Source of the DNA: a virus
Reading direction: 5' to 3' (one strand)
Virus record (IMG/VR): IMGVR_UViG_3300045988_027758
DNA: 45,074 bases
Shown here: one piece after another, positions 2,756-36,269 of the stretch
Layout of the letters: every line of letters starts with the position of its first letter
How positions within the stretch are numbered: the first letter of the stretch is position 1
The notes under the pieces: model-generated
What the model saw: the letters and a program-made list of their open reading frames with translations, nothing else
What the model was told of the DNA's origin: nothing
The model's database searches: none
Position numbers and translations under genes: made by a program

Positions 2756-2759
2756 ATGG

Positions 2760-2876: not shown

Positions 2877-2936
2877 AGAGTTCCCAAAGTGGAACGGAAT
2901 ATTGGGTTAGAAATATGAAGAAAGAAGGTGGATGTT

Positions 2937-3236: not shown

Positions 3237-3240
3237 TGCA

Positions 3241-3654: not shown

Positions 3655-5339
3655 CCACCATTCCCCCGGCTGAACCTGATAATGCCCTGATTATGGGGCA
3701 GACGGTTCACACGGGCATTGAAAAAAGCCTTGAAGAAGCAATCAAAGAATACAGTTTCAGCTATCCGATTATTACCGATGAACATATCAACGAAATAATC
3801 AAGTTTGAAACAGTGATCCCGCTTGCAAGGGCGGCAATCCCGCTCGGTGGGGCATTTGAAGTTGAAATTGCAGACAGCGATTTCCACGGGTTCATTGATT
3901 ACCTTGTTCCCGTGGGTGATGGGTACTTTGATTTGTACGATTTTAAGTATTCAAACAATGTATCAGGCTATAAGCAGTCAAATCAGCTTCACCTTTACAA
4001 ATACTTTTGGGAACGGAACAACCCCGGAAAGAAAATCCGAAATATGTATTTCCTGTTTATCCCAAAGGTATCAATTCGGCAGAAGAAAACCGAAACTTTG
4101 CTTGACTTCCGGCAGCGTTTGAAAGAAGAACTTGCCGGGGCAGAGGTCAAAACCGTTCAAATTGGGTTCAATCCTGAAAAGGTCATTGAATTCCTGTTTG
4201 GAATAAAAGCTATCAAAGAAGAAAAGGATTTCCCGCAAAACAAAAGCTATTTGTGCCGTTTTTGCGAGTATCAAGAAAATTGTGAGAAAGGATGGAACTA
4301 TTTTATGAAGTTACCTGAAAACAAGAGAAGAAACATTGAAGCCGTTGAAAAGCGTGTGCTTTGGATTTATGGTGTTCCGTTTTGCGGAAAGACCACCTTT
4401 GCAAATAGCTTCCCTGATCCGCTGATGCTGAACACGGATGGCAATATCAAGTTCGTTGATGCCCCGTATATCCGCATTAAGGACGAAATCAAGGTTGAGG
4501 GGCGCATGACGAAAAGAACCCTTGCGTGGGATGTGTTCAAGGATACCATTTCCGAACTGGAAAAGAAGGACAACACCTTCAAGACGATTGTTGTTGACCT
4601 GTTGGAAGATTTGTATGAGCATTGCCGCCTGTATATGTATCAGCAGATGGGTATTACCCATGAATCCGATGATTCCTTCCGTGCGTGGGATAAGGTTAGG
4701 GGCGAATTTTTGAACACCCTGAAACGCCTTATGAACCTTGACTATGAAAACATTATCCTGATTTCCCATGAGGACACAAGCAAGGACATTACCAAAAAGG
4801 GCGGCGATAAGATCACGGCGATCAAGCCTAACTTGCAGGATAAGGTTGCAAACAAGGTTGCCGGAATGGTGGATGTGGTTGCCCGTATCGTGGCAGACGG
4901 TGACACCCGCACATTCAGCTTCAAGAGCAATGAAGTTATTTTCGGCGGCGGGCGTTTGAAGGTAAACGCAAAGGATATTCCGCTTGATGTGAACGCCCTG
5001 TTTGCGGTTTACGATGAAGCCAACAAGAACGCTGCTTCCGGCGTTGTGACAGCAGCCGCTTCCACAGGAAAGACCGGGCGCAGCACCCGCAAGAAAGCAG
5101 AAGAAGCACCCGCCACAACCGCAGATAAGCCGCAGGACAAGCCCGCAGAGGAACAGGCGGTAAACAATACCCCTGAGCAGGAAACCCCGCAGGAAGCCGC
5201 AGATAAGGCAGAGGAAAAGCAGCCTGAACAGGCAGCAGAGCAGCAGGACACAGCAGCCCCGGTTGATGGCGTTATGAATCCCCCGGAAGCCCCGGCAGAG
5301 GAAGAAAAGCCCCGCCGTAAGCGTAAAGCAAGAGATTAA
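3576..5339 (+). CDS. Fusion protein: Cas4/RecB-like PD-(D/E)xK exonuclease (4-Cys) + Sak4-like AAA_24 ATPase + acidic Pro/Glu/Ala-rich tail
   Basis: N-terminal half: Cys in VDCFEKC, IDYL...LYDFKYS, QLHLYKYF, CRFCEYQENC. C-terminal half: Walker A YGVPFCGKTT, VVDLLED, ILISHED. The last ~110 aa are low complexity. TTG start 6 nt after AAAGGGGTG. Confidence 0.8.
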   Translation: MRYSHSSVDCFEKCKHKYEMRYIHGITTIPPAEPDNALIMGQTVHTGIEKSLEEAIKEYSFSYPIITDEHINEIIKFETVIPLARAAIPLGGAFEVEIADSDFHGFIDYLVPVGDGYFDLYDFKYSNNVSGYKQSNQLHLYKYFWERNNPGKKIRNMYFLFIPKVSIRQKKTETLLDFRQRLKEELAGAEVKTVQIGFNPEKVIEFLFGIKAIKEEKDFPQNKSYLCRFCEYQENCEKGWNYFMKLPENKRRNIEAVEKRVLWIYGVPFCGKTTFANSFPDPLMLNTDGNIKFVDAPYIRIKDEIKVEGRMTKRTLAWDVFKDTISELEKKDNTFKTIVVDLLEDLYEHCRLYMYQQMGITHESDDSFRAWDKVRGEFLNTLKRLMNLDYENIILISHEDTSKDITKKGGDKITAIKPNLQDKVANKVAGMVDVVARIVADGDTRTFSFKSNEVIFGGGRLKVNAKDIPLDVNALFAVYDEANKNAASGVVTAAASTGKTGRSTRKKAEEAPATTADKPQDKPAEEQAVNNTPEQETPQEAADKAEEKQPEQAAEQQDTAAPVDGVMNPPEAPAEEEKPRRKRKARD

Positions 5340-5357
5340 GAAAGGTAGGTACATAGT

Positions 5358-5621
5358 ATGAACAATCCGTTTGGTATTCCTGATGATGTATTTGAAGGGA
5401 TGGTTGCTTCCATTTTGAAGGCACAGGGTAAGACCCGCCCCGGTAACAATGCCAACATTCAGAACCCTTTCATTCAGAAGGTGGAATTCAATGTTGCAGA
5501 GGAAGCAAAGAAATCTGCTTCCGTGTCTATGGCTTTGTATAAGGCGTATCAGGAAGTGGGCTTCACGCAGGAACAGGCTTTTGAACTGGTTAAGGGTATC
5601 TTGACCGCAAAGAAAAACTAA
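5358..5621 (+). CDS. Hypothetical protein (87 aa)
   Basis: Intact ORF in the operon with an RBS (AAGGTAGG). Confidence 0.6.
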   Translation: MNNPFGIPDDVFEGMVASILKAQGKTRPGNNANIQNPFIQKVEFNVAEEAKKSASVSMALYKAYQEVGFTQEQAFELVKGILTAKKN

Positions 5622-5650
5622 TTACAGAAAGGTTAAACAGGTGAAAAATT

Positions 5651-6112
5651 ATGGCTAACATTTGGGAAGAATTCGATAAGAGCATTGACACGGAAGGTTT
5701 GGCAAAGGATGTTGAGGAAGCAGCAGAAAACGGCGGTCGCCGTGAAGTTCCGCATGATACCTATGAGGTGGCAATCAACAAGCTGGAGCTGACAAAGAGC
5801 AAGAAGGGTGATCCGATGGTCACTTGCTGGATGAAGATTGTTGAGGGCGAGTACAAGGGCAGCTTGATTTTTATGAATCAGGTGGTAACGCAGGGATTTC
5901 AGATTCACATTGCAAACGAGTTCATGCGTGCGTTGGTTCAGGAGATGGAAACCCCTGTTGAAGTCCAGTTCAAGACCTATTCGCAGTATGGCAACATGAT
6001 TATGGACATTATGGAAGCCATTGATAACAACTTTGAATACAAGGTTCGTTACTACGAGAACAAGGGTTATAACGCATTTGAGATTCAGGAAGTTTATGTT
6101 CTTGAAGATTAA
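5651..6112 (+). CDS. DUF669-family protein (putative ssDNA-binding partner of Sak4)
   Basis: Size, acidic N-terminus and the block YEVAINKLELTKSKKGDPMVTCWMKIVEGEYKG. Canonical position after a Sak4-like ATPase. Confidence 0.7.
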   Translation: MANIWEEFDKSIDTEGLAKDVEEAAENGGRREVPHDTYEVAINKLELTKSKKGDPMVTCWMKIVEGEYKGSLIFMNQVVTQGFQIHIANEFMRALVQEMETPVEVQFKTYSQYGNMIMDIMEAIDNNFEYKVRYYENKGYNAFEIQEVYVLED

Positions 6113-6154
6113 GTGATACAACTTGTGACCTGACAAGTCAAACAGGCGGGTGGG

Positions 6155-7897
6155 TTGGTGGGAAAACAGCAGAAAGGGGTGAATGGATTGCTGTTTTATG
6201 ATTTTGAGGTTTTCAAGTATGATTGGTTGGTTGTGGTAATGGATATGACCGCAAAGAAAACCCATGTGATAATCAATTCCCCGGAAGAACTTGAAGCCTT
6301 ATATAAGGCAAATATAAAAGAAATTTGGGTTGGTTTTAACAGCCGCCACTACGATCAGTACATTTTGAAAGCTATACTTTGCGGGTTTGATCCTAAAAAG
6401 GTGAATGATTACATAATCACAAAGGGAAATCCCGGTTGGAAGTTCAGCAGCTTATTCCGGCAGTTCCCCCTTTGGAATTATGATGTGATGCTGAATACCG
6501 ATGTGGGTTTGAAGTCCTTTGAGGGGTTCATGGGAAATGACATAAAGGAAACTTCCGTTCCCTTCAATATTGACCGCAAACTTACGCCGGAAGAAATTGC
6601 CGAAACGGTGAAATACTGCAAGCACGATGTTGAACAGACGGTTCAGGTTTTTTTGAAACGAACGGAAGAATTCAATACCATGATGTATTTCATTAAGCAT
6701 TTCGGGCTTAGTATGGACTACATTTCCAAAACCAAAGCGCAGCTTGCAGCGGAGATTTTAGGCGGCAATCGCAAGGGGGCAGATTTTGACGATGAATTTC
6801 AGTTCCCTATTCTTGATTGCTTGCACCTGAACAAATATAAGCACATTGCGGAATGGTACGCAAATCCTGAGAACCACGATTACAGCAAGAAACAGGATAA
6901 ACAGATTGTGGCAGGGGTTGAACATACCTTTGCATGGGGTGGCGGTCACGGGGCAAGGGCAAAATATTCCGCTGATGGGGTATTCCTTATCATTGATGTT
7001 ACCGCCTATTACCCTTCATTACAAAAGAAATATCATTTTGGGTATCGTGTGATGAACCACCCTGAAAACTTTGAGTTTATCCACGATTCCAATATTGCCT
7101 ACAAGCGGAAGGGCGATAAGAAAGCAAGACAGCCCTTCAAAATTATGGATAATGCAATCAGCGGGCAGATGAAACAGAAATCTTCCGCTTTGTATGACCC
7201 AATGAGCAACAACAGCATTTGTATCAATGGACAGCTTTTATTGCTGGATTTGGTTGAACACATTGAACCGTATTGTGAACTTATACAGAACAACACGGAC
7301 GGTATCATTGTAAAGCTGAAAGACTATGAACATGATTTCGATGTGCTGGACGATGTTGTTTATGAATGGGAACAGCGAACAGGAATGAAAATGGATTTTG
7401 ATACCTATATCGGAACAATCTATCAGAAGGATGTGAATAATTACCTTCTGATTGACCGAAAAACAGGGGCAGTCAAGGCAAAGGGTGGCTATGTTATGAA
7501 GCTGAATGATTTAAGCTATGACTTGCCAATCATCAACAAAGCCTTGGTTGATTATATGATTCACGGAATTCCAGTGCGCCGAACTATCATGGAATGTCAG
7601 GACTTGCGGGAATTCCAGCTTGTTTCCCGTATCAGCAGCAAATACACACACATTCTTTACGGCGATAAGCCTATCAAAGAAAAGTGTATCAGGGTGTTTG
7701 CTTCCAACAATCCCGCTGATCCGGGTGTGAAGAAGGTTCATGCGGTAAGAAAAACCACCGCAAAGCTGACAAATTCCCCGGAACATTGCTTCATTTTCAA
7801 TGACGATGTGAAGAGTGTTCCCGTCCCTGATAAGCTGGATCGTCAATGGTACATTGATTTTGCAAATAAAAGATTATCAGATTTCGGGGTGGTGTGA
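6155..7897 (+). CDS. Small family-B-like DNA polymerase with 3'-5' exonuclease domain
   Basis: ExoI YDFEV, ExoII NSRHYD, ExoIII YCKHD. Pol motif A DVTAYYPSL, motif C-like NNTDGIIV. TTG/GTG start after GGCGGGTGGG. Confidence 0.75.
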   Translation: MVGKQQKGVNGLLFYDFEVFKYDWLVVVMDMTAKKTHVIINSPEELEALYKANIKEIWVGFNSRHYDQYILKAILCGFDPKKVNDYIITKGNPGWKFSSLFRQFPLWNYDVMLNTDVGLKSFEGFMGNDIKETSVPFNIDRKLTPEEIAETVKYCKHDVEQTVQVFLKRTEEFNTMMYFIKHFGLSMDYISKTKAQLAAEILGGNRKGADFDDEFQFPILDCLHLNKYKHIAEWYANPENHDYSKKQDKQIVAGVEHTFAWGGGHGARAKYSADGVFLIIDVTAYYPSLQKKYHFGYRVMNHPENFEFIHDSNIAYKRKGDKKARQPFKIMDNAISGQMKQKSSALYDPMSNNSICINGQLLLLDLVEHIEPYCELIQNNTDGIIVKLKDYEHDFDVLDDVVYEWEQRTGMKMDFDTYIGTIYQKDVNNYLLIDRKTGAVKAKGGYVMKLNDLSYDLPIINKALVDYMIHGIPVRRTIMECQDLREFQLVSRISSKYTHILYGDKPIKEKCIRVFASNNPADPGVKKVHAVRKTTAKLTNSPEHCFIFNDDVKSVPVPDKLDRQWYIDFANKRLSDFGVV

Positions 7898-8322
7898 TGG
7901 ACGATTTACATATTACTTACAACCACGGGAACGGAGAAATGCTTATTCATTTAGATTATTTCTTCCCGTGTTCACAGGTTCGTTTCAATAAGCTGCTGAA
8001 AATCATTGAACTTGATTGGCAGCATGAAGCGGAATTGAAAGAGAATTTGAAAGTTCACTTTCAAAAAAGAATTGCCGATTTAACAGCCTTGTGGAAAGAA
8101 AACAGTAAACTTTACTATGACAGCAAGGAAAAGGCGGCAAGTACCAAAGCAATTATTGACAGCCGAAAGCACCCGAACGGGTTGCCGCTTTCAAAGGATG
8201 AATTGAAAGAAGCAAGGGCTGATTTTAGAGCCTACACAGCAGCTTATAAACAGGCACTTTCGGATGCAAAGAGTAATAAACGGTTCAAAGAACGGTTTGA
8301 AAAATACTTAGAATCTATGTAA
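7894..8322 (+). CDS. Hypothetical protein (142 aa)
   Basis: ATGA overlap with the polymerase stop; helical, Lys-rich. Confidence 0.6.
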   Translation: MMDDLHITYNHGNGEMLIHLDYFFPCSQVRFNKLLKIIELDWQHEAELKENLKVHFQKRIADLTALWKENSKLYYDSKEKAASTKAIIDSRKHPNGLPLSKDELKEARADFRAYTAAYKQALSDAKSNKRFKERFEKYLESM

Positions 8323-8337
8323 AGGCGGTGAGTTGAA

Positions 8338-10224
8338 TTGTTCTTCAGGGGTTTTGTTGAAACCAAAAACAAGAAGTGCATAGAGAAATTCAAAGGAAGA
8401 ACAGACTTCAAGACCTTTGAACAGGTTCAGTCATTGCCGGAATACGCTGGAATTTTGGCAGCGGAAACAATTCTGATTGATGTGGATGATTTTGAAGCGT
8501 CCGAAATACTGTTCAAGGTTGTAAAAGAATATGCGTTGACCTGTCGAGTGTACCGCACAAGCAGGGGCAAGCATTTTCTGTTCAAGAACAGCGGAGTACC
8601 AACCAACAAGACAGGCTGCAAACTGGCAATAGGTTTGACCGCTGATATTAAAATCGGTACAAGAAATTCCTATGAAGTTCTGAAATATGACAATCAGAAC
8701 AGGGAAATTCTTTATGATACCGCTGAAAATGAGGAAGCCCAGCAGCTTCCCCGTTGGTTGTTCCCGGTGAAATCCAAAATGGAGTTTTTGAACATGGAAA
8801 CCGGGGATGGTAGAAATCAAGGGCTTTTCAATTACATTCTTACGCTGCAAAGCAATGATTTCAGCGTGGAAGAAGCACGGGAAACAATCAGGATCATCAA
8901 CAAGTTTGTTCTGAAAGTTCCACTTTCCGATGATGAAATTGAAACCGTCCTTCGGGATGATGCGTTCAAGAAGCCTGTTTTCTTCATGGGTTCGACTTTC
9001 CTTTTTGACAAGTTCGCAACCTTCTTGAAGAACAACAACCATATTATCAAAATTAACAATCAGCTACATATCTACAAGAACGGTATCTATATTTCCGGGC
9101 TGGCAGAGATTGAAGCGGAAATGATACAGCACATTCCGGGGCTGAACAGGGCGAAAAGAACGGAAGTTCTTGCTTACCTTGATATTCTGATCCGTGAGAA
9201 TTCCAAAGCGGAAGATGCAAACCTGATTGCGTTTGAAAATGGGCTTTACAATATCGTGGATGATTCCTTTGTGGAGTTTACCCCGGAACACATTATCACA
9301 AACAAAATCAGGTGGAAATATAACCCGGAAGCCTATTCCGAACTTGCGGACAAGACATTGAACAAGATTGCTTGCAATGATCCGCAAATCAGGGCGTTGC
9401 TTGAAGAAGCAATCGGGTATTGCTTCTATCGCAGGAATGAGCTTGGAAAAGCCTTCATTTTGACGGGTGACAAATCCAACGGTAAAAGTACCTTCCTTTC
9501 AATGGTTCAGTGCCTTTTAGGGGATGAAAATATCAGTTCCCTTGACTTGAAAGAATTGGGCGATAGGTTCAAGACCGCTGAAATGTTCGGAAAGTTGGCG
9601 AATATTGGTGATGATATTGGTGACGAATTCATAGCGAACCCGGCAATTTTCAAAAAGTTGGTTACAGGTGAAAGAGTTTCAGCCGAACGCAAGGGGCAGA
9701 ACCCGTTTGAATTCAATAACTATTCAAAGCTGCTTTTTTCCGCAAACAACATTCCCCGTATCAAAGATAAAACGGGTGCGGTGCAGCGGCGTTTGACAAT
9801 CATTCCGTTTGATGCAAGGTTTTCTGCTGATGATCCTGATTTCAACCCGTATATCAAGCACTTGTTGAAAACTGATGAAGTCATGGAATACCTGATAAAT
9901 TTGGGTATTGCCGGATTGAAGCGGGTTCTTCTAAACCGCAAGTTTACGGGTTCGACTAAAGTTCAAAAAGCAATGGACGAATACGAGGAAAACAACAATC
10001 CTATCATTGGGTTTTTCCGGGAATGTGAAGATGAAGAATTCCAAATCGAGAACGAACCAACCAATGTTGTTTATAAGCGTTATCAGGAATATTGCCTTGC
10101 AAACAGTTTGCAGCCTATGAGCAATATTGAATTTTCAAAGCAGGTCAACCGTATTTTGAATATGCGTGTTGAAAACAAATGGCTGAACGGTAAAAAACAC
10201 CGTATTTTCATTAAAAATGAGTAA
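8338..10224 (+). CDS. Primase-polymerase fused to D5/P4-type SF3 helicase
   Basis: N-terminal ILIDVDD and TSRGKHFLF (prim-pol). C-terminal Walker A GDKSNGKST and Walker B IGDDIGD. TTG start after AAAGGCGGTGAG. Confidence 0.85.
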   Translation: MFFRGFVETKNKKCIEKFKGRTDFKTFEQVQSLPEYAGILAAETILIDVDDFEASEILFKVVKEYALTCRVYRTSRGKHFLFKNSGVPTNKTGCKLAIGLTADIKIGTRNSYEVLKYDNQNREILYDTAENEEAQQLPRWLFPVKSKMEFLNMETGDGRNQGLFNYILTLQSNDFSVEEARETIRIINKFVLKVPLSDDEIETVLRDDAFKKPVFFMGSTFLFDKFATFLKNNNHIIKINNQLHIYKNGIYISGLAEIEAEMIQHIPGLNRAKRTEVLAYLDILIRENSKAEDANLIAFENGLYNIVDDSFVEFTPEHIITNKIRWKYNPEAYSELADKTLNKIACNDPQIRALLEEAIGYCFYRRNELGKAFILTGDKSNGKSTFLSMVQCLLGDENISSLDLKELGDRFKTAEMFGKLANIGDDIGDEFIANPAIFKKLVTGERVSAERKGQNPFEFNNYSKLLFSANNIPRIKDKTGAVQRRLTIIPFDARFSADDPDFNPYIKHLLKTDEVMEYLINLGIAGLKRVLLNRKFTGSTKVQKAMDEYEENNNPIIGFFRECEDEEFQIENEPTNVVYKRYQEYCLANSLQPMSNIEFSKQVNRILNMRVENKWLNGKKHRIFIKNE

Positions 10225-10243
10225 AGGAAGGTGTGCATTTTGA

Positions 10244-10867
10244 ATGAACAGAGAGAGAGAGAGAACAGAAAGTAAAGACTGGATAGGCAATCAAAACAGT
10301 ATTTACACCACCTTGGGGGCTTCCAATCATACCGACAAGGAACGGCAGCAGCATGATTATTATGCAACCGAACCGAAAGCAATGGAACTTCTGCTTGCAG
10401 AAGAACAGTTTTCCCCGGTCATTTGGGAATGTGCTTGCGGTGAAGGGCATTTGTCAAAAGTGCTTGAACAGCACGGATTTGAGGTTATCAGCACGGATTT
10501 AATTTACCGGGGATTCGGTGATCCTGAACCGCTGGACTTCCTGAAAGAATCCCTTGAAGATTTTGAAGGGGATATTATCACAAATCCGCCGTACAAATAC
10601 GCCCTTGAATTTGTCGAACAGGCGTTGAACAGTGTGCAGCCGGGAAGAAAAGTTGCAATGTTCCTGAAACTGCAATTCCTTGAAGGGAAAAGCAGGAAAC
10701 AGTTTTTCTTACATAACCCGCCGAAAGTGGTTTATGTAAGTTCTTCCCGCCTGATATGTGCAATGAACGGGGAATTTTCAAAGTACCCTTCAAGTGCTGT
10801 TGCCTATGCGTGGTTTGTGTGGGAAAAGGGCTTTCAAGGTGATCCAATCATCAAATGGATAAATTGA
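10244..10867 (+). CDS. Orphan SAM-dependent DNA N6-adenine methyltransferase
   Basis: Motif I ECACGEGHL, motif IV NPPY (IITNPPYKY). No restriction partner nearby. Confidence 0.8.
   Translation: MNRERERTESKDWIGNQNSIYTTLGASNHTDKERQQHDYYATEPKAMELLLAEEQFSPVIWECACGEGHLSKVLEQHGFEVISTDLIYRGFGDPEPLDFLKESLEDFEGDIITNPPYKYALEFVEQALNSVQPGRKVAMFLKLQFLEGKSRKQFFLHNPPKVVYVSSSRLICAMNGEFSKYPSSAVAYAWFVWEKGFQGDPIIKWIN
10250..10264 (+). repeat. (AG/GA)7 dinucleotide tract inside codons 3-7 of the methyltransferase
   Basis: Read directly: cAGAGAGAGAGAGAGAa, encoding RERER. Confidence 0.95.
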
Positions 10868-10879
10868 AAGGGGCGCAAG

Positions 10880-11092
10880 ATGAACAAAAATAATCCTTAT
10901 TATAACAATGAAGGGTACGCTGACCCTACTGCATTTTACGGAACAAAGCAGATTGTGAAGGAAGAAGCAGAAACAGAACGGCGGGCAAATGAATTGATAA
11001 AAGTTTTGAAGTTCATTATTCGTTCATGCGGTTTTGAACTAATTGAACGGGTGAAAATCAAGGACACAAAGACTGGAAAGGAGTTCAAATAA
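10880..11092 (+). CDS. Hypothetical protein (70 aa)
   Basis: Intact ORF with an RBS (AAAGGGG). Confidence 0.55.
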   Translation: MNKNNPYYNNEGYADPTAFYGTKQIVKEEAETERRANELIKVLKFIIRSCGFELIERVKIKDTKTGKEFK

Positions 11093-11316
11093 TGGAACAG
11101 ATTCAGAATGCAGTATTGGCAGCGTTTGAAGAATTCAAGAAAGAATTCGGAGAAAATGCGAAACTTGAAGAAGGTGATGAATTTGTCACCGTATTCAATA
11201 ATTGTACGCTGATTATCAGTATTGAAGATGGAACACTTAGAGAACGGTTTATTGGTGGCAAGCCTTACCGGGTTGATATGTCACTTGCAATTTATGAGGG
11301 TGGGGCAAATGAATAA
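11092..11316 (+). CDS. Hypothetical protein (74 aa)
   Basis: TAATG stop/start coupling with the previous ORF. Confidence 0.55.
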   Translation: MEQIQNAVLAAFEEFKKEFGENAKLEEGDEFVTVFNNCTLIISIEDGTLRERFIGGKPYRVDMSLAIYEGGANE

Positions 11317-11869
11317 TTTTACTACGGATGAACGCATTGAACAGTTTTCAAACCTGATGAACCCTTATGTTTCGGAAGAATTCAAGGAATGGTTGATTGA
11401 AAGCGGCTTCTTCACAGCCCCGGCTTCCATTCACCACCACGGGGCTTATTCCGGGGCGTTGTTCGATCATAGCTTTGCAGTAACCAAAGCCCTTCTTTCC
11501 TTTACGGAACGTCTTGAACTGAAATGGCAGCTTGAACGCAGCCCCTACATTGTGGGTATGTTTCACGATCTTTGCAAGGTGGACAACTACACTTGCACGA
11601 AAAAGCCCGCCCTTTCCCCGTTGCTGGAAGGTGACAGTTGGGAATATAACAATGCAACCCTTCTTCCGGGGCATAGTGATAAATCCGTTATGATGTTGCA
11701 GCAGCACATTCAACTTACGGATGAAGAACTTTATTGTATCAGGTGGCACATGGGGGCGTTCGATGATAAAGAGAATTGGAACAGCTACGGGCGGGCGGTA
11801 ACCAACTTCCCGAATGTGCTTTACACCCACACCGCCGATATGGTAGCCGCCCGGATTTTGGGGGTATGA
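11309..11869 (+). CDS. HD-domain phosphohydrolase
   Basis: HHHGAYSGALFDHS ... MFHDLCK ... RWHMG. ATG 11309 after GAGGGTGGGG. Confidence 0.8.
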   Translation: MNNFTTDERIEQFSNLMNPYVSEEFKEWLIESGFFTAPASIHHHGAYSGALFDHSFAVTKALLSFTERLELKWQLERSPYIVGMFHDLCKVDNYTCTKKPALSPLLEGDSWEYNNATLLPGHSDKSVMMLQQHIQLTDEELYCIRWHMGAFDDKENWNSYGRAVTNFPNVLYTHTADMVAARILGV

Positions 11870-12030
11870 GCATGAACAACGATGATAAGGAACAGCTTGA
11901 ATACATAAGAGCATGGGTGCAGCAGAAGAAACAGCGTGAAGCCCATAAGCAGATTGCGAAACGGAAAATCAAATATCATTTCCGAATGGCGTTTCATTGG
12001 CTGATTGAACTTTTCAAGAAAGGACGGTAA
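11866..12030 (+). CDS. Hypothetical small basic protein (54 aa)
   Basis: ATGA overlap with the HD gene stop. In frame with track ORF 11776..12030. Confidence 0.5.
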   Translation: MSMNNDDKEQLEYIRAWVQQKKQREAHKQIAKRKIKYHFRMAFHWLIELFKKGR

Positions 12031-12036
12031 ACAGGT

Positions 12037-12945
12037 ATGAATAAAATCTATAATGGAATTATGGGGCTTGTTGTCGGGGATGCGTTGGGTGTTCCCGTGG
12101 AATTCAAAGAACGGGATTCCTATGAAGTAACTGATATGATGGGCTTTGGAACTTACAATCAGAAGCCCGGTACATGGTCGGACGATAGTTCAATGACCCT
12201 TGCAACCCTTGAAAGTATGGGGCGCATTGGTTCGTTTGATGCCGCCGATATTATGAACAATTTCTATCAGTGGTTGCAGAATGATAAATTTACCCCGTGG
12301 GGCAAGGTGTTTGATGTGGGTGGTGCTACAAGGCGGGCAATCGTGCGATATGCGAACGGAACTGACCCGGTGAAATGCGGCGGTAAAACCCGCATGGACA
12401 ACGGGAACGGTGCGTTGATGCGTATTCTTCCCGTGGCTATGCTTGCGGAAACTGATCCACATGACAAAATGGTGACGGTGAAAAGCATTGCAGGGCTTAC
12501 CCACAACCACCCAATTTCACATATCGCTTGCTTCATTTATGCGTTCATGGTTGAAAATCTGATGAACAATGTTGATAAGCGTTCAGCCCTTTCCAATGCA
12601 ATTCAGGTTGTGGGCGGGGTTTATGGTGAAACTGAAATGTGGCAGGAATTCCGTTTCCTTGCTGAAATTGATAAGTTTGACCGTGACGAAATCAAAAGTT
12701 CCGGCTATGTGGTGGACACGCTGGAAGCTGCTGTTTGGTGTTTCCTGAATTCATGCAGCTATCGGGAATGTGTTTTGCTGGCGGTGAACTTAGGCAGCGA
12801 CACCGACACAGTAGCGGCGGTTGCCGGTGGGCTTGCCGGGATTTATTACGGTTGCGGTGGTGAAAGCGGCATTCCTGATGAATGGATTGCACAGATTCCC
12901 CGGAAAGACTGGATCAAGGAGTTATGTGATAAATTTGAAAGTTAA
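12037..12945 (+). CDS. ADP-ribosylglycohydrolase (ARH/DraG family)
   Basis: GDALGVPVEF, WSDDSSM, GNGALMRILP, GSDTDTVAAVAGGLAGIYYG. Confidence 0.9.
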   Translation: MNKIYNGIMGLVVGDALGVPVEFKERDSYEVTDMMGFGTYNQKPGTWSDDSSMTLATLESMGRIGSFDAADIMNNFYQWLQNDKFTPWGKVFDVGGATRRAIVRYANGTDPVKCGGKTRMDNGNGALMRILPVAMLAETDPHDKMVTVKSIAGLTHNHPISHIACFIYAFMVENLMNNVDKRSALSNAIQVVGGVYGETEMWQEFRFLAEIDKFDRDEIKSSGYVVDTLEAAVWCFLNSCSYRECVLLAVNLGSDTDTVAAVAGGLAGIYYGCGGESGIPDEWIAQIPRKDWIKELCDKFES

Positions 12946-13260
12946 TTTTCAAAACTGAAAAACATTCAAGTTTTCATTCCAGTTACATTCAAGTTGTAGT
13001 TGTGGGAACTGGAATGAAGGGAAACGCTTGCTATACGGGGATTTTCATTCAATTCATTCAACTTCTTCAACTTGTTTTTGAGTTCTTTATAAATTAGAAA
13101 AAATCAATATCATTTTTTACAGTGTTTTTCTAAAAATAGAGTAATAAGAAACAACAAGTTGAAGTTGAATGAATTCCCCGGTGCTGATTTGAAAATCCGC
13201 ATGAATACAGAATTTTTCTTCATTCCACTTTCACATTCAAGTTAGAAAGGCGGTGCTTCC
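12946..13260. promoter_or_regulatory. Repeat-rich AT-rich intergenic region between the early and late modules (candidate late-control region or origin)
   Basis: ACATTCAAGTT x3 (12962, 12985, 13233). TTCATTCCA(G/C)TT at 12973 and 13219, with an inverted copy at 13007-13018. A 23-26-nt inverted repeat (13051-13076 / 13153-13175) flanks a 76-nt AT-rich spacer. Confidence 0.6.
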
Positions 13261-13704
13261 ATGAAAGCGAAAGAATATTTGCAGCAGTTGCAGCGATTAG
13301 ATACGATGATAAATCAGAAAATCAAAGAATTAGGTGATTTACGCCTGATGTCGCAGAGTGTCGGCGGCATTGATTATTCAAAAGAGCGTGTGCAGTCCAG
13401 CCCTTCCGGGGATGCCCCATTTGTGAAGCCTGTTTTGCGTATGATTGAGCTTGAACAGGAAATCAATACAGAGATTGACCGCTTTGTTGATGAAAAGCAT
13501 GAAATCATCAATCAGATTCAGGCTTTGCAGAACCCGAAACACATTGATATTCTGTATAAGCACTATGTTGAATTCAAACGGCTTGAAATCGTTGCCGTTG
13601 AAATGAACTTTACATATCAATACATTGTCGAATTGCACGGTACAGCGTTGAAGGAATTCCAGCTTACCCATGAAAACCTATTGAATTCCAATGACGAACC
13701 CTGA
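13261..13704 (+). CDS. DUF1492-type late transcriptional regulator (sigma-70 region-4-like HTH)
   Basis: N-terminal MKAKEYLQQLQRLDTMINQKIKEL. C-terminal block YKHYVEFKRLEIVAVEMNFTYQYIVELHGTALKEF. Position immediately upstream of terS. Confidence 0.75.
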   Translation: MKAKEYLQQLQRLDTMINQKIKELGDLRLMSQSVGGIDYSKERVQSSPSGDAPFVKPVLRMIELEQEINTEIDRFVDEKHEIINQIQALQNPKHIDILYKHYVEFKRLEIVAVEMNFTYQYIVELHGTALKEFQLTHENLLNSNDEP

Positions 13705-13720
13705 TATAATGATAAAGTGA

Positions 13721-13756
13721 AAAATCAGCGGGAACATAGTTCCTTGCTGATTTTTT
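13721..13756 (+). terminator. Rho-independent terminator after the late-regulator gene
   Basis: AATCAGC-GGAAC-ata-GTTCC-GCTGATT followed by T6. Confidence 0.75.
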
Positions 13757-13761
13757 CGTTT

Positions 13762-13832
13762 TCCCGGTGGGGTACTCATAGCCGAATGAAAGACAGGTCG
13801 GTGAACTCCTACCCACCGGGAAAATCTTTTTT
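13762..13832 (+). terminator. Second long stem-loop with U-tract directly upstream of terS
   Basis: TTCCCGGTGGGGTA ... TACCCACCGGGAA (about 13 bp, one bulge). It encloses a nested GCCGA/TCGGT hairpin and is followed by aatcTTTTTT. Confidence 0.6.
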
Positions 13833-13870
13833 ATTGCCAAAATCACACAGAAAGGAAGTGAACTTTCAAT

Positions 13871-14368
13871 ATGGCAAAAGGAAAATATGAACACTGGTTG
13901 ACAGAAGAAGGTTTGCTTCAACTGGAAGCGTGGGCAAGGAACGGCTTGACGGATGAACAGATTGCTTCCAATATGGGAATTGGATATTCCACATTGCAGA
14001 CTTGGAAATCAAAGTATCAAGACATTCAAGACACCCTAAAAAGGGGGAAGGCAGTTGTTGACATTCAGGTTGAAAATGCTTTGTTGAAAAGGGCATTGGG
14101 TTATTCCTATGTTGAAACAACCCGTGAACAGGTCATTGATTATGACAAAACAACGGGCGTTCCAATCGGTTCACACATGGAAGTTACAAAAGAGGTCACA
14201 AAGGAAGTTGTTCCTGATACCACAGCACAAATCTTTTGGTTGAAGAACAGGAAGCCGGAAGATTGGCGTGATAAAAGGGATGTTGCTGTTGAAGGTACTT
14301 TGAATACAAACAACCCGTTTGAAGGTTTGACAACGGAAGAATTAAGAAAGATTATTGACAATGAATGA
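13871..14368 (+). CDS. terS: Terminase small subunit
   Basis: HTH LTDEQIASNMGIGYSTLQTW. KNRKPEDWRDK tail. Overlaps the terL start. Confidence 0.85.
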   Translation: MAKGKYEHWLTEEGLLQLEAWARNGLTDEQIASNMGIGYSTLQTWKSKYQDIQDTLKRGKAVVDIQVENALLKRALGYSYVETTREQVIDYDKTTGVPIGSHMEVTKEVTKEVVPDTTAQIFWLKNRKPEDWRDKRDVAVEGTLNTNNPFEGLTTEELRKIIDNE

Positions 14369-15752
14369 TCTTCAAAAATTCGCCCGCATTGAACTTTCTA
14401 AACGGGATTTTTTTGTATATTGCAACACAAAAGCACCTGACTTTTACAAGAAAGACAGAACCTTCCTTGTTGAGTTTTGCACAGACCTTCAAACCTTCCT
14501 TCAAAGTGATGAACATGAAATCTTGGTTGTGAATATGCCGCCCCGTCATGGCAAATCACGAACCATAGGAAACTTTGTTGAATGGGTGCTTGGTAACGAT
14601 CAAACCCAAAAGATTATGACGGGTTCATATAACGAAATTCTTTCAACCAACTTTTCAAAGGGTGTGCGAAACACCATTCAGGAAGTAAAGGCTGATAAGG
14701 ATAAAATCATATATTCAGACATTTTCCCCGGTGTAAAAATCAAATGGGGCGATGGTGCTATGAATATGTGGTCGTTGGAAAATGGCTATAATAACTATTT
14801 GGCTACTTCTCCAACAGGTACAGCAACAGGTTTTGGCGCAACCCTGATGATTATTGATGATTTAATCAAATCTTCCCTTGAAGCGAACAACGCTGATACC
14901 CTTGAAAAACATTGGTCATGGTTTACTGATACAATGCTTTCAAGATTGGAAGAAGGCGGCAAAATCATAATCGTTATGACCCGGTGGCACAGCTTAGACT
15001 TAGCCGGACGGATCATTGACGAATACGGCGATAAGGTCAAGGTTGTTCAATACAAAGCGGTTCAGGATGATGGTTCAATGCTTTGCCCGGAAATTCTTTC
15101 CCGGAAGTCTTACGAAACCAAAAGAAAAGCTATGGGCGTTGAGATTGCAGAAGCGAACTACCAACAGAACCCGATTGACATTAAGGGCAGACTGTACGGA
15201 AGGTTCAAAACTTACACTGAACTTCCGAAAGACAGTTCCGGGCATTTGCTTTGTTCTGCTGTTAAGAACTACACTGATACAGCAGATACAGGTGACGATT
15301 TTCTTTGTAGTATCAATTATGTTGAGTACAACAAGGAAGCCTATGTTATCAATGTCATTTACACAAAGGACGGTATGGAAATCACCGAACCCGCCGTTGC
15401 AAAAATGCTGTATGACGATAAGGTGAATGTTGCTGATATAGAATCGAATAACGGCGGGCGTGGTTTTGCCCGGAATGTTGGTTCTATTCTTCAAAGCAAG
15501 TATCACAGCAACAGAACGGTTATACACCCGTTCTTCCAGTCAAAAAACAAACAATCCCGCATACTGTCCAACAGTACATGGGTTATGGAACACATATATT
15601 TTCCGCAAAATTGGGCTGACCGCTTCCCTGACTACTACACAGCTATGAGCCGATACCAAAAAGAGGGAAAGAACGCACATGACGATGCCCCCGATGCAAC
15701 AACGGGCATAGCTGAAAAGGTTGGTTGCGGTGAAGCGTTCAGTTTCGACTAA
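14361..15752 (+). CDS. terL: Terminase large subunit
   Basis: Walker A-like MPPRHGKS, Walker B LMIIDD, C-terminal nuclease acidic residues (HDDAPDA). ATG 14361; a TTG at 14355 is also possible. Confidence 0.9.
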   Translation: MNDLQKFARIELSKRDFFVYCNTKAPDFYKKDRTFLVEFCTDLQTFLQSDEHEILVVNMPPRHGKSRTIGNFVEWVLGNDQTQKIMTGSYNEILSTNFSKGVRNTIQEVKADKDKIIYSDIFPGVKIKWGDGAMNMWSLENGYNNYLATSPTGTATGFGATLMIIDDLIKSSLEANNADTLEKHWSWFTDTMLSRLEEGGKIIIVMTRWHSLDLAGRIIDEYGDKVKVVQYKAVQDDGSMLCPEILSRKSYETKRKAMGVEIAEANYQQNPIDIKGRLYGRFKTYTELPKDSSGHLLCSAVKNYTDTADTGDDFLCSINYVEYNKEAYVINVIYTKDGMEITEPAVAKMLYDDKVNVADIESNNGGRGFARNVGSILQSKYHSNRTVIHPFFQSKNKQSRILSNSTWVMEHIYFPQNWADRFPDYYTAMSRYQKEGKNAHDDAPDATTGIAEKVGCGEAFSFD

Positions 15753-15839: not shown

Positions 15840-17357
15840 GTGAGCCTGATTGACACATTGGCGGTCAAAGTATCGAACCTGATTTTGCAGGGTGCAGATA
15901 TGAGCGATAAGCAGTTCTTTGAACGGGAAATTCAGAAGTGGAAGAACAGCCCGCAGCGTATCATGCAAATCAAAGGGCATTTGTACTATGACAATGAACA
16001 CGATATTTTGCACCGAAAGCGAATGATGATCGGTGAGGGCGGCAAGCTGGAAGAAGTGGATAACCTACCCAACAACCGCCTGATTGATAATCAGTATGCA
16101 AAGCTGGTGAACCAAAAAGCAAACTACCTTTTAGGTCAACCCTTTGCCATTGAGGGCGAAAATCAGCAGTATGTTGAACTTTTGAAAAAGGTGTTCAACA
16201 AGCGTTTTATGAAAACCCTGAAAGCAGCAGGAAAGGCAATGCTGAACAACGGTATCTGTTGGTTGTACCCTTATTACACCGAAACGGGCGAATTTTCCTT
16301 CCGAATGTTCCCCGGCTATGAAGTGCTTCCTTTTTGGAAGGACACGGAACACACCATTCTTGAAGCGGCTGTCCGCTTGTATTTGGTGGTTGGGTATCAG
16401 GGTACAACGCCCGTGCTGATTGAAAAGGTTGAAATCTACGATTTGAACGGTGTTCACCGCTTCATTTTGGACGGTTCAACCCTTATTCCTGATTTACAGG
16501 GTGTTGATGATAACACTTCCCCATACACCACAACCACGGGTGAGGACGGGAACGCCCTTTCCCTGAATTGGGCGAAAGTTCCCCTGATCCCGCTGAAATA
16601 CAATGAATGCGAAATTCCGCTTTTGAAGAAGGTGAAAACCCTTCAAGACGGTATCAATGTTATGCTGTCCGACTTTGAAAACAATATGCAAGAGGACGCA
16701 CGAAACACCATTCTTGTATTGAAGAACTATGACGGAACGAATTTAGGGGAATTCCGAAAGAACCTTGCAACATACGGTGCGGTAAAGGTTCGCTATGATG
16801 GGGAAACCAAAGGCGGCGTTGAAACCCTTGAAATCAAAGTCAATGCTGAAAACTATAAGGCTATCATTGAAATCTTCAAGAAAGCCATTATTGAGAACGG
16901 CATGGGCTACGATGCAAAGGATGATAGGCTTTCCGGCAACCCCAACCAAATGAATATTCAATCCATGTATTCAGACATTGATTTGGATGCTAATGACATG
17001 GAAACAGAGCTACAAGCAGCTTTTGAAGAAATTCTTTGGTTTGTGAACGCCCACCTTGCCAATACCGGGCAGGGCAACTTTGACGGTGAGGAAGTCAACA
17101 TTATCTTCAACCGGGACATTCTTATCAACGAGAGTGAAGCAATAGATAATTGTCAGAAGTCCGTTGGTATTCTTTCCGATGAAACTATTGTTGGTATGCA
17201 CCCGTGGGTTGATGATCCGCAGCTTGAACTTGACCGCTTGAAGAAGCAGAAAGAGGAACAGCAGGCAGAATTTGAAGCCCAGCAGTTCAACCCGTTTGCA
17301 CCACAGCAGCAGAAGGGCAACGCCCCGCCTGATGAAGGGGGTACGGTGAATGAATAA
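15840..17357 (+). CDS. Portal protein (SPP1 gp6-like)
   Basis: About 505 aa directly after terL. Start uncertain: GTG 15840 after GAAGGTG, TTG 15804, or ATG 15900. Confidence 0.8.
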   Translation: MSLIDTLAVKVSNLILQGADMSDKQFFEREIQKWKNSPQRIMQIKGHLYYDNEHDILHRKRMMIGEGGKLEEVDNLPNNRLIDNQYAKLVNQKANYLLGQPFAIEGENQQYVELLKKVFNKRFMKTLKAAGKAMLNNGICWLYPYYTETGEFSFRMFPGYEVLPFWKDTEHTILEAAVRLYLVVGYQGTTPVLIEKVEIYDLNGVHRFILDGSTLIPDLQGVDDNTSPYTTTTGEDGNALSLNWAKVPLIPLKYNECEIPLLKKVKTLQDGINVMLSDFENNMQEDARNTILVLKNYDGTNLGEFRKNLATYGAVKVRYDGETKGGVETLEIKVNAENYKAIIEIFKKAIIENGMGYDAKDDRLSGNPNQMNIQSMYSDIDLDANDMETELQAAFEEILWFVNAHLANTGQGNFDGEEVNIIFNRDILINESEAIDNCQKSVGILSDETIVGMHPWVDDPQLELDRLKKQKEEQQAEFEAQQFNPFAPQQQKGNAPPDEGGTVNE

Positions 17358-19842
17358 CGCTGAATACTGGAAGTTGCGGTTTGAACAGCTTGAACAGGCG
17401 CAGAACCAAAAGGGCGTGAAAGCCTATGCTGATATTGAACGGCAGTATAAGGAAGCCCAAAAGCAACTTGAAGGGCAGATTGCCCGCTGGTATCAGCGTT
17501 TTGCAACCAACAACGGAATTTCCCTTGCGGAAGCACGGCAGTATTTGAAGGGTGCAGACCTGAAAGAATTTAAGTGGGATGTGCAGGAATATATCAAGTA
17601 CGGACAGGACAACGCCTTAAACAGCGGTTGGATGAAAGAACTTGAAAATGCTTCTGCAAAGTATCACATTTCAAAGCTGGAAGCCCTGAAAGTACAGACA
17701 CAGCACAGCCTTGAAGTCATGTATGCAAAGCAGTTCGGCACTATGCACGGGGCTTTGTCGGATGCCTTTGAAAGCGGGTACTATCACACAGCGTATGAAC
17801 TTCAACACGGGTTCAATGTTGGTTGGGATATTGCCGGACTGGATCAGGCACAGATTGAAAAGGTGCTTGCTAAACCGTGGGCGGCTGATGGGTACAATTT
17901 TTCTGAAAGAATTTGGGGAAACAAGAACAAGCTGATTTCGGAAGTCCACAACGAACTTTCCCGGAATATCATGTTGGGTGCTGACCCGCAAAAGACTATT
18001 GATTCCCTTGCAAAGAAAATGAACACTTCCAAAAACAACGCCGGAAGGCTTGTAATGACGGAAGAAGCCTATTTCAGTTCAGCCGCACAGAAGGATTGCT
18101 TTGAGAGTTTGGGCGTTGAACAGTATGAAATTGTTGCAACGCTGGATTCCCATACTTCCGACATTTGCAGAAGCCTTGACGGGAAGCATTTTCCCATGAA
18201 GGACTATCAGCCGGGAGTGACCGCCCCGCCGTTTCATGTTTATTGCCGTTCAACGACCGTTCCATATTTCGATGAACAGTTTGACATTGGGGAACGGGCG
18301 GCAAGGGATGAAGCAACCGGGAAAACCTACTATATTCCCGATGATATGAATTATCAGGAATGGAAGGAAACCTTTGTTGATGGCGGTGACAAGTCCGGGT
18401 TTGATGTGCTGGACGATGGTTCAGCCCTTCACTACACCCACCATGAAGAACCTGAACCGCCGAAACCAAAGAAGGAATATCTGACAAAGAAAAAGCTGCA
18501 AGCGAAAATTGCTGATGCGGATGTTCAGCTTGAAGATTTGGAAGCCCAATTCAAGGGCGTTTCCGGGGGTTGGACATTCGATGAAGTTTTGAAGGACTTT
18601 GGAAGCCTTGAAGATTTCACGGATGGGGATGATCTTGCAAAGCTGAAAGACCTTCATTCACAGGTAGAAGCCATTGAAACCCAAAAAGCAGAGTGGCAGC
18701 AGAAGTTGAATGAAAAGCTGATTGCAGAGCAGAAGAAAGCCCTTGCGAAACAGCAGGTGGAACTTGAAGCACAGAAAGCCGCTGTTCAGCAACAGCTTGA
18801 TGATTTCGAGGTCAAGACCTATTCCGGCATTTGGTACAACAAGGATGTGACAACCGCTGATTGGGCGGGGCTGAATATCGAGGGTAAGAAGAAGTATTAT
18901 GAAGGGAAGTTTATTACCGAAACTGACCCCGATTTGATGCAGAAGTATCAGGATTTATACAAGCAGTTGGAAGAACTTGATACAGAGGGCAAAGCCTACG
19001 CTGACATTCAGAAAGAGTTGAAACAAATTCAAAGCCAAATCACCAAAGTTCAAACGGATTTGAAAAAACTTGAACAAGGTGGTATAATTGATTCGGTGGA
19101 CGATGCCTTTTCGCAGGAACGCAAGGATGCCGCTATTTGGGCGAAAACAACCAAAGAAGCGGACGATGTTTTGCGTGATACTTGCGGTGAGGTTTGGCGC
19201 ACTTCCTCACCGATTCAGAAAAATGCAATCTATGACTACACCCAAAGTTACCACAAGTTCAACGAACCGTTGCGTGGTATCGAATACGGCAGCGAAAAGT
19301 TCTTAGGTGTTGGAAATGTGGATTTAGACCAAATCGGCGTTTCCTATCAGGGCTGGAAGCCCGGTCAGATGCGGAAAGAAATAAACGCTATGACCGACAT
19401 TATTTCCAAATCGACATACAAGGAAGATTTTTGGTTGCAGCGTGGTTGTAGATTTAAGGGCATGGACAAATTCTTCAATGTTCCTATGGATCGCTTGCAG
19501 AGTGCAACACAGGCAGAGTTGGAACAGTTGCTTTTGAATACAACACCGACTGAATACGGCTTTTGTTCTTGTGGTGTTGCCAAAGGCAAAGGATTCAGCG
19601 GTGATATTATCCTGAATATTTACGCCCCTTCCGGCACACAAATGATGTATGTTGAACCGTTTTCGGCTTTCGGAAATGGCGGGGGTAAGAATTGGGATGG
19701 TATTGCAAAGCAAGGTTCTTTCGGTCAAGAATCGGAAATCATATTGCAGCAGGGAACAAAGTTCCGTGTAACAAAGGTTGAAAAAACACCCGGTATGATT
19801 TACATTGACCTTGAAGTGATTGAACAGACCCCGCAACGATAA
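17350..19842 (+). CDS. Head morphogenesis protein (SPP1 gp7 / Mu F-like) with long coiled coil and C-terminal ADP-ribosyltransferase domain
   Basis: gp7 block LDSHTSDICRSLDGKHF ... PPFHVYCRS. C-terminal R-S-E triad: LQRG (R codon 19441-19443), FCSCG (19561-19575), QESE (19726-19737). Confidence 0.85.
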   Translation: MNNAEYWKLRFEQLEQAQNQKGVKAYADIERQYKEAQKQLEGQIARWYQRFATNNGISLAEARQYLKGADLKEFKWDVQEYIKYGQDNALNSGWMKELENASAKYHISKLEALKVQTQHSLEVMYAKQFGTMHGALSDAFESGYYHTAYELQHGFNVGWDIAGLDQAQIEKVLAKPWAADGYNFSERIWGNKNKLISEVHNELSRNIMLGADPQKTIDSLAKKMNTSKNNAGRLVMTEEAYFSSAAQKDCFESLGVEQYEIVATLDSHTSDICRSLDGKHFPMKDYQPGVTAPPFHVYCRSTTVPYFDEQFDIGERAARDEATGKTYYIPDDMNYQEWKETFVDGGDKSGFDVLDDGSALHYTHHEEPEPPKPKKEYLTKKKLQAKIADADVQLEDLEAQFKGVSGGWTFDEVLKDFGSLEDFTDGDDLAKLKDLHSQVEAIETQKAEWQQKLNEKLIAEQKKALAKQQVELEAQKAAVQQQLDDFEVKTYSGIWYNKDVTTADWAGLNIEGKKKYYEGKFITETDPDLMQKYQDLYKQLEELDTEGKAYADIQKELKQIQSQITKVQTDLKKLEQGGIIDSVDDAFSQERKDAAIWAKTTKEADDVLRDTCGEVWRTSSPIQKNAIYDYTQSYHKFNEPLRGIEYGSEKFLGVGNVDLDQIGVSYQGWKPGQMRKEINAMTDIISKSTYKEDFWLQRGCRFKGMDKFFNVPMDRLQSATQAELEQLLLNTTPTEYGFCSCGVAKGKGFSGDIILNIYAPSGTQMMYVEPFSAFGNGGGKNWDGIAKQGSFGQESEIILQQGTKFRVTKVEKTPGMIYIDLEVIEQTPQR

Positions 19843-19860: not shown

Positions 19861-20166
19861 ATGGAAAAGAAAACATTATCTGAACGCTATGCGGATGAAG
19901 TCCTTACCGACAACACCGCCTTGAACCACTATTCACAGTGTAAGGGATGTGTTTTCCGTGACAAAACCACCGTAAGCGGTGAAGAATGTGGATGGCAAAA
20001 AGCCGTGTGCCACATTTACGGAAGAAGTACCGCTTCCCGGTTGAAATATTCAAGCGGTGAACTGGTATTTCCATACACCCCGGTTGAACCCGGTGATAAA
20101 CCGAATGAGGTTTACAACAACACCGCAAATTGTGAGTATTACGAACAGGAAAAGCGGAAGAAATAA
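19861..20166 (+). CDS. Hypothetical Cys-containing protein (101 aa)
   Basis: CKGC ... CGW ... C pattern suggests a zinc-binding site. RBS GAAGGTGG. Confidence 0.6.
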   Translation: MEKKTLSERYADEVLTDNTALNHYSQCKGCVFRDKTTVSGEECGWQKAVCHIYGRSTASRLKYSSGELVFPYTPVEPGDKPNEVYNNTANCEYYEQEKRKK

Positions 20167-36105: not shown

Positions 36106-36269
36106 CAATATATTCTCTGTATTCCTGAATTACCCCGCCGCTTGGCGAAAAAGACAGCCCCCACAAGGGGGAAGTTAAAAATAAAATTGGGCTGTATTAG
36201 TAAATTTGAAAGTTTATTTTCAAAAGTTGAAAGTTCGGCTTAATGTGCATACAAAAAGGACATTCAGCA

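Follow-up and report, generated by a model that had tools for sequence, protein, structure and literature searches.

Why would a phage whose minor head protein ends in a predicted ADP-ribosyltransferase (ART) also encode, in a different gene module, a predicted ADP-ribosylhydrolase (ARH)? The question is raised by a virus record from IMG/VR (IMGVR_UViG_3300045988_027758), whose DNA of 45,074 nucleotides we analysed as a whole and refer to as the window. Its ARH gene is the subject of this report. The ART is fused to a head protein of the MuF type (MuF-ART), and the gene for MuF-ART is followed by that for a small protein with four cysteines, which we call CysS. We think it probable that ARH is a generic enzymatic antidote, or eraser, acting against the MuF-ART toxin carried in the head of the same phage, and that it forms one part of a three-part system, in which its most likely place is that of a back-up antidote. 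The domain identities, catalytic motifs, gene order, co-occurrence, covariation and adjacent or fused gene arrangements reported here were all computed directly.

A preliminary description of this DNA had already proposed ARH as an eraser partner of the head-borne ART, together with possible anti-defence roles, and had placed it next to HD and methyltransferase genes. The partner reading is supported by co-occurrence and by relatives in which ARH lies within the ART cassette or is fused to it. The anti-defence roles and a conserved HD/methyltransferase module are not supported, and three things had been overlooked: CysS, the dispensability of ARH, and a precedent, the Bxa system, for which the same logic has been demonstrated by experiment (PMC11699363).

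Association of ARH with the head-borne ART

Hidden Markov models (HMMs) were built for ARH, for the ART domain and for the N-terminal domain of MuF (MuF-N), and were run on the six-frame open reading frames (ORFs) of IMG/VR loci gathered with three independent anchors. The set anchored on MuF-N, an anchor blind to both ART and ARH, was confined to loci with enough flanking sequence. Among these siblings 13 have both ART and ARH, one has ART without ARH, none has ARH without ART, and 26 have neither (Fisher p=1e-9). The co-occurrence that was to be expected of a writer and its eraser is thus found, with ARH in 13/14 ART-positive and 0/26 ART-negative phages. After collapsing to lineages at 90% MuF-N identity, the same four classes hold 5, 1, 0 and 12 members (ARH in 5/6 ART-positive and 0/12 ART-negative lineages). 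In every ART-negative sibling MuF has some other C-terminal extension. The two kinds of phage interleave: the closest pair of opposite ART status shares 86% MuF-N identity, and pairs of ART-positive phages go down to 53%.

The other two anchors gave similar pictures from either side. Within the close clade anchored on ARH, an ART lies 4-8 kb downstream in 31 of 37 evaluable loci, and in the ART-anchored set ARH was found in 34 of 42 evaluable loci. Dereplication of the latter at 90% left 20 lineages, of which 12 have a full ARH, one has a truncated copy only and 7 have none. The association between ARH and ART is strong, yet not obligatory.

Gene arrangements in relatives tie ARH functionally to the ART cassette, and do so independently of any statistics, because the two are found side by side or joined. 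MuF-ART, CysS and ARH are adjacent and co-oriented in seven loci (L277-L283, L303), and in two more (L139, L143) about 240 bp separate ARH from an ART gene on its upstream side. At a further locus (L160; IMGVR_UViG_2901948472_000007, 7832-10927) MuF-ART is followed by a single in-frame CysS-ARH fusion ORF, whose first ~75 residues match the CysS HMM (E=4.9e-11) and whose remainder is ARH.

An apparently intact enzyme of the DraG fold

Residues 7-281 of ARH match positions 2-286 of the 287-position Pfam profile PF03747, ADP_ribosyl_GH (E=2.2e-76; 257.7 bits against a cutoff of 26.2), which amounts to an end-to-end match, and the PHROG family phrog_6572 is matched with E=7.5e-87. The best NCBIfam model is that of Tri1 (NF041672, 210.5 bits), for which the equivalog cutoff of 490 is not reached; the alignment covers model positions 72-354 only, and the N-terminal occluding extension of Tri1 is missing. 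The DraG model TIGR02662 likewise stays below its equivalog cutoff (152.6 bits, cutoff 337). Lmo0067 (8za7, E=3e-76) is the closest relative with a solved structure, followed by Tri1 (6dre), and Thermus ARH (2cwc) and DraG (2woc) are also among the solved relatives.

The catalytic residues were mapped by a profile alignment of ARH to DraG (2woc) and to its D97N mutant (2woe). E22 of ARH corresponds to E28 of DraG, S48/D49/D50 to T59/D60/D61, and D93 to D97, the column of the D97N exchange in 2woc/2woe. T155-H156-x-H158 falls on the TH motif of DraG, and D255/D257/T258 on the C-terminal metal ligands (D-x-D-T); the DraG ligand numbers beyond the E-D-D motif follow the general DraG literature. 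All of the mapped catalytic and metal-ligand residues are the same in every one of 22 homologues (57-84% identity). The E-D-D catalytic motif of DraG consists of E28, D60 and D97, and both Tri1 and DraG are annotated as Protein-R-ADPr hydrolases with this motif (PMC8120803).

Because the profile match is full-length and the E-D-D motif and metal ligands are invariant, ARH looks like an intact enzyme. The PF03747 match and the DraG alignment confirm the earlier statement that it is a complete ARH/DraG-family protein with all signature acidic blocks. Its predicted substrate is arginine-linked ADP-ribose, which is what its nearest characterised relatives hydrolyse. In six-frame HMM scans of the window, ARH, ART and the small Cys ORF were each found exactly once.

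The family assignment bears on the two anti-defence roles that had been suggested. According to the first, ARH would reverse ADP-ribosylation imposed by the host, on DNA by DarT-type or on RNA by CmdT-type enzymes. Such a role has parallels, in that phages carry orphan antitoxin-like erasers against DarT1 (PMC11825919), and the early module in which ARH lies is a frequent place for counter-defence genes. However, the documented erasers of DarT marks (the DarG macrodomain and the NADAR protein DarG1/AdfN) are macrodomain or NADAR enzymes, whereas ARH matches only PF03747, an all-alpha DraG fold, which leaves an anti-DarT role without family-level support. The closest characterised ARH relatives act on protein arginine, and the presence of ARH follows the phage's own ART instead of being spread across siblings. 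PADLOC returned no defence-system model with a meaningful match to ARH, to the HD-like protein or to ART. We regard a role in reversing host ADP-ribosylation as improbable.

The second suggestion, that ARH hydrolyses immune signals derived from ADP-ribose such as the gcADPR and His-ADPR of Thoeris, seems to us highly improbable. The general chemistry of cleaving 1''-linked ADP-ribose conjugates is the one point in its favour, and to our knowledge the known anti-Thoeris proteins are sponges, which counts against it. Domains of the ADP-ribosylglycohydrolase (ARG) class are argued to prefer macromolecular conjugates over small-molecule derivatives (Iyer et al., PMC9503650); the suggestion runs against this preference, found no support in our analysis, and would leave the correlation with the phage's own ART unexplained.

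The predicted writer and its small four-cysteine partner

MuF-ART is an SPP1 gp7-like protein (TIGR01641) with a Phage_Mu_F domain at residues 198-303 and an ADPrib_exo_Tox domain at residues 618-812. Its PHROG matches are phrog_115 (minor head protein) and phrog_16625, which is labelled 'Bxa ADP-ribosyl transferase', and the ART HMM matches residues 584-826. S180 and the E234-x-E236 motif of the ART are invariant in 18 homologues, and the ExE motif in ARTs of the R-S-E type is a mark of arginine-specific enzymes. It is presumably a component of the packaged head and enters the cell along with the phage DNA.

The writer/eraser pair that had been described lacked a third component, the small Cys-rich gene directly after ART. 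Homologues of CysS, 72-101 aa in length, follow ART in about 50 loci, and the CysS HMM was positive in 52 of the 160 viral loci scanned. CysS is present in every evaluable ART-anchored locus, and by HMM it is absent from the ART-negative loci inspected (L002, L101, L124, L132, L035, L040). The invariant residues are C27, C30, C50, C91, K80-P81 and E92/Y94/E95, the last three belonging to a C-terminal C-E-x-Y-E motif. CysS matches no Pfam or PHROG family and has no name in any source examined. Structure prediction from 23 homologues gave a mean predicted local distance difference test score (pLDDT) of 48.9, which is of low confidence.

The obvious comparison is with Bsi, a small protein that blocks the Bacteroides toxin Bxa through binding (PMC11699363). 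Homology between the two was rejected at the sequence level, CysS being dissimilar to the Bsi-like phrog_19606 protein. CysS represents an uncharacterised family, distinct from that of Bsi, and we consider it a candidate immunity protein that would fill the same role.

Covariation was assessed from pairwise identities among 26 non-identical loci. The identity of CysS follows that of the ART domain (Spearman 0.67): it never falls below 57% where the ARTs are at least 90% identical, and has a median of 33% where the ARTs are below 60%. The identity of ARH gave Spearman coefficients of 0.76 with MuF-N, 0.42 with ART and 0.14 with CysS. ARH can be 93% identical across ART variants of only 58% identity, and only 62% identical between phages with 91%-identical ARTs. 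A division of labour is suggested because CysS tracks ART while ARH tracks the phage backbone. The simplest reading of these sequence comparisons is that ART and CysS make up a recombining toxin/inhibitor cassette, and that ARH would be a generic eraser that needs no match to the ART variant.

Loci in which ARH is missing, truncated or without ART

Several observations weigh against ARH as an antidote to the phage's own toxin. ARH of the window is not adjacent to ART; it lies 4.4 kb away and in another module. Seven of the 20 dereplicated MuF-ART lineages have no ARH, and one locus (L032) has ART and CysS without it. At another (L013, 9902-10615; L018 is the same contig) ARH is truncated by an in-frame deletion, with MuF-ART and CysS intact: the HD gene is lost together with the first 98 residues of ARH, and what is left of ARH (99-302) continues residues 1-36 of a 70-aa upstream ORF. 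A third (L273, 3476-3943) keeps only ARH profile positions 150-299, again beside an intact MuF-ART and CysS. The converse also occurs, in that a full ARH is present without any ART in six phage loci (L002, L101, L124, L132, L123, L155). The nearest cellular ARHs (56-60% identity) come from Stomatobaculum, Lachnospiraceae and other Clostridia; they lack a nearby ART and have cobalamin, citrate-lyase, rRNA-methylase and cyclophilin genes as neighbours. Finally, the co-occurrence statistics are corrected for shared ancestry only in part.

From these cases we draw two conclusions. ARH is dispensable, because about a third of the MuF-ART lineages do without it, natural truncations exist and cellular homologues stand alone. 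The ARH subfamily is also not intrinsically a partner of ART, because its cellular members sit among housekeeping genes without one. The MuF-ART cassette itself was found in only 2 of 80 genomic loci. At four chromosomal loci of Nostoc (L200, L214, L217, L240; about 10001-11950), ARH homologues that are 46-47% identical occur as two tandem copies, and no ART was detected in their vicinity.

Two of the orphans indicate how the ART-less loci may have arisen. In L002 (11529-13355) and L101, MuF carries a PBECR2 nuclease instead of ART, and the ARHs are 98% and 68% identical, respectively, to that of the window. Such an ARH was probably left over when the toxin cassette was replaced. The ART-less loci as a whole fit leftover immunity genes, and they also fit a broader role for ARH.

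The broader role that deserves most attention is cross-protection or competition, in which ARH would erase marks written by foreign ARTs, for instance those of superinfecting MuF-ART phages or the ART toxins of type VI and type VII secretion systems (T6SS and T7SS), and not the marks of the phage's own ART, and may also reset an endogenous host switch based on arginine ADP-ribosylation. It would account for an ARH that goes with the phage backbone and not with the ART variant, for its persistence where a nuclease or some other domain is attached to MuF, and for the close stand-alone cellular homologues with no ART nearby; stand-alone ARGs of hosts have, moreover, been predicted to counter foreign ARTs (Iyer et al., PMC9503650). 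Against it stand the ART-less siblings, which should meet the same foreign ARTs and yet carry ARH in 0 of 26 cases, and the relatives in which ARH is adjacent or fused to the phage's own ART cassette. The orphans are explained equally well as leftovers from the exchange of a toxin cassette, an event typical of polymorphic toxin loci (PMC11699363). We judge cross-protection to be rather unlikely.

A proposed three-part scheme

If ARH is the generic eraser of the phage's own toxin, the three parts would work together as follows. MuF-ART, the writer, would be synthesised late, go into the head with the portal and enter the cell along with the DNA, whereupon its ExE-type ART would ADP-ribosylate arginines of host proteins. 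CysS would be the specific inhibitor, cognate and stoichiometric, travelling with the ART domain as a swappable cassette. ARH, the eraser, would hydrolyse arginine-linked ADP-ribose regardless of which ART variant had written the mark. It is probably made before the late genes, because its gene closes the replication module. It could thus remove both the marks of the injected ART and those of newly made ART that escapes the inhibitor, and the cell would stay productive until lysis.

A variant of this scheme gives the split layout a function of its own. As infection begins, a few injected molecules of MuF-ART would deliver to host proteins a short pulse of arginine ADP-ribosylation, which early ARH would erase on schedule, and CysS would silence new ART only late; the resulting timed cycle of writing and erasing would serve as a takeover step or a lysis-lysogeny switch. 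We put this forward tentatively, as a possible but unlikely elaboration.

Toxins fused to MuF occur widely among the temperate phages of bacteria from the gut and mouth, and immunity that combines an ART with an eraser and a binder has been worked out only for Bxa of Bacteroides. The present locus suggests that the same three-part logic exists in Clostridia-type phages and is built from different protein families. The toxin-specific small inhibitor would move with the ART, and the generic ARH would stay with the backbone, whether remote from the cassette, adjacent to it or fused. This leads to a prediction: ARH should rescue growth from several ART variants, and CysS only from its own. The system also offers a way to ask whether phages time a reversible modification of their hosts.

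Comparison with known systems

The core concept is already published in the form of Bxa/BAH/Bsi, and the window extends known biology; what it adds is the four-Cys family, the division between cassette and backbone, and the variety of ARH arrangements. Bxa is a MuF-ART of a Bacteroides prophage, and its antibacterial activity is reversed enzymatically by the ARH protein BAH, of which the E15A variant is inactive (Alexei et al., J Biol Chem 2024, PMC11699363). Bacteroides phage Versailles (ON453897) has the Bxa/BAH/Bsi layout, with ARH adjacent and convergent to the toxin. The window shares with this system a temperate phage and a MuF with a C-terminal ART (37% identical to the Versailles ART, with the phrog_16625 match), and a toxin countered by an ARH plus a small non-enzymatic protein, a feature that in the window is predicted from the genes alone. 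E22 of the window ARH aligns with the essential E15 of BAH, and the window ARH and the BAH orthologue both belong to phrog_6572.

The differences are nevertheless considerable. The window ARH is only 23% identical to the BAH orthologue of Versailles and belongs to the branch of Tri1 and Lmo0067, and the small partner is the four-Cys CysS, unrelated to the Bsi-like phrog_19606. ARH of the window lies 4.4 kb upstream, in the replication module, and the host is predicted to be a Clostridia-type Gram-positive. Unlike the Bxa system, about a third of the MuF-ART lineages of the window type lack ARH.

Tri1, the immunity protein to the Serratia T6SS effector Tre1, is the best NCBIfam match of ARH and its second-best solved relative. 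In it an occluding N-terminal extension is joined to an ARH domain, an arginine-specific E-D-D enzyme that protects enzymatically (PMC8120803), and this union of a binding extension and an ARH in one protein is mirrored by the CysS-ARH fusion described above. The window ARH, in contrast, has no N-terminal extension, does not lie beside ART and has no T6SS context, and binding and erasing would be assigned to separate genes in separate modules. DraT/DraG offers likeness in fold, in the E-D-D and metal-ligand residues and in arginine-ADP-ribose chemistry (predicted for the window ARH), but DraT, a nif context and a regulatory link to PII are all missing from the window. Both comparisons had been made in the preliminary description and are apt, as these are the best NCBIfam and PDB relatives of known function. 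Lmo0067 of Listeria monocytogenes (8za7) has all motifs in common with ARH, with roughly 50% identity by eye over the full-length alignment; it is, however, a chromosomal gene and not a phage gene.

A parallel with unrelated proteins exists in the MuF-Apk2 (p)ppApp synthetase toxins, which, as described in PMC11699363, are neutralised by the hydrolase Aph1 and the binder Tis1 (PMC10083569). There too a MuF-fused toxin is countered by a product-reversing enzyme and a small binder, but the chemistry differs, in that an alarmone is synthesised and hydrolysed, and none of the proteins is related to those of the window. Jamet et al. describe MuF toxins with predicted small downstream immunity genes and do not mention glycohydrolases. 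According to Iyer et al. (PMC9503650), ARGs are rare in viruses, and an ART-ARG pair is mentioned only in some Aeromonas phages.

Gene neighbourhood and other features

The coordinates of the features discussed here are collected in Table 1.

Table 1. Features of the 45,074-nucleotide window, with coordinates counted from its first letter
Feature	Coordinates	Strand	Description
Methyltransferase-like gene	10244-10867		Four genes upstream of ARH; PHROG match
54-aa ORF	11866-12030		Between the HD-like gene and ARH; no Pfam or PHROG match
ARH	12037..12945	+	Predicted DraG/ARH-fold ADP-ribosylhydrolase; 302 aa, ATG start; PF03747, phrog_6572
Structured intergenic region	12946..13260	.	Marks the module boundary between ARH and the late-regulator gene
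MuF-ART	17350..19842	+	MuF/gp7 minor head protein fused via a coiled-coil linker to a C-terminal ART; 830 aa
ART domain	roughly 19099-19827		Part of MuF-ART
CysS	19861..20166	+	Candidate cognate binding-type immunity protein; 101 aa, four Cys; directly after the MuF-ART gene
RT-17 RNA	36153-36254		Rfam RF03020
Reverse-transcriptase ORF	36243-37382		RVT_1
Integrase	39600-40607		

From 438 to 12945 the window holds replication and recombination genes: an SNF2 helicase, a protein with PD-(D/E)XK and AAA_24 domains, a D5-type primase, the methyltransferase-like and HD-like genes, and ARH. On the 3' side of ARH a gap of 315 bp is followed by a phrog_36 regulator (the late regulator), the small and large terminase subunits, an SPP1-type portal and MuF-ART. 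In divergent relatives, too, ARH keeps its place directly upstream of the late regulator. ARH does end the replication gene run, as had been stated when it was called the last gene of the early operon, but what is observed is the gene order. We infer an early operon from this order, since a scan of 10000-14500 gave no support for it: promoter-like sites occurred no more often than in shuffled sequence, terminator-like sites showed a modest excess (10, where shuffling gave a mean of 4.5, sd 2.2), and no terminator-like site lies in the gap between ARH and the late regulator.

The HD phosphohydrolase and the methyltransferase had been taken for direct neighbours of ARH, a picture that needs correcting in view of the intervening 54-aa ORF and the upstream position of the methyltransferase-like gene. 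Both labels come from PHROG matches only, Pfam having given nothing significant. The idea that HD, methyltransferase and ARH form one functional module was rejected, as the first two are absent beside ARH in two relatives (L056, L124). The gap of ~170 nt that holds the 54-aa ORF is kept in close relatives. The methyltransferase-like protein has at its N-terminus an Arg-Glu dipeptide repeat, encoded by a short tandem repeat in the DNA; it reads 'RERERTE' in the window and is expanded to 'RERERERERER' in a relative (L013, 9233-9889).

In the intergenic region downstream of ARH, ACATTCAAGTT occurs in three exact copies, and nested inverted repeats span about 13007-13230. Its predicted RNA fold has a minimum free energy of -84.9 kcal/mol (z=-5.5 against shuffles), and no Rfam family was matched within it. 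A gap of similar length is kept 3' of ARH in relatives. The region could serve to control the late operon, encode a non-coding RNA, or act as a signal for replication or packaging.

The integrase, together with an endolysin of amidase/CW_7/SPOR architecture, indicates a temperate phage of a Gram-positive host; the closest cellular ARHs are those of Clostridia. A genome scan for the host found no close prophage copy, and the search for a near-identical phage record yielded only a 5% partial match. Near the tail genes, an RT-17 RNA (43.4 bits, gathering score 40.4) lies directly upstream of a reverse-transcriptase ORF, and the two (36153-37382) are probably a diversity-generating retroelement.

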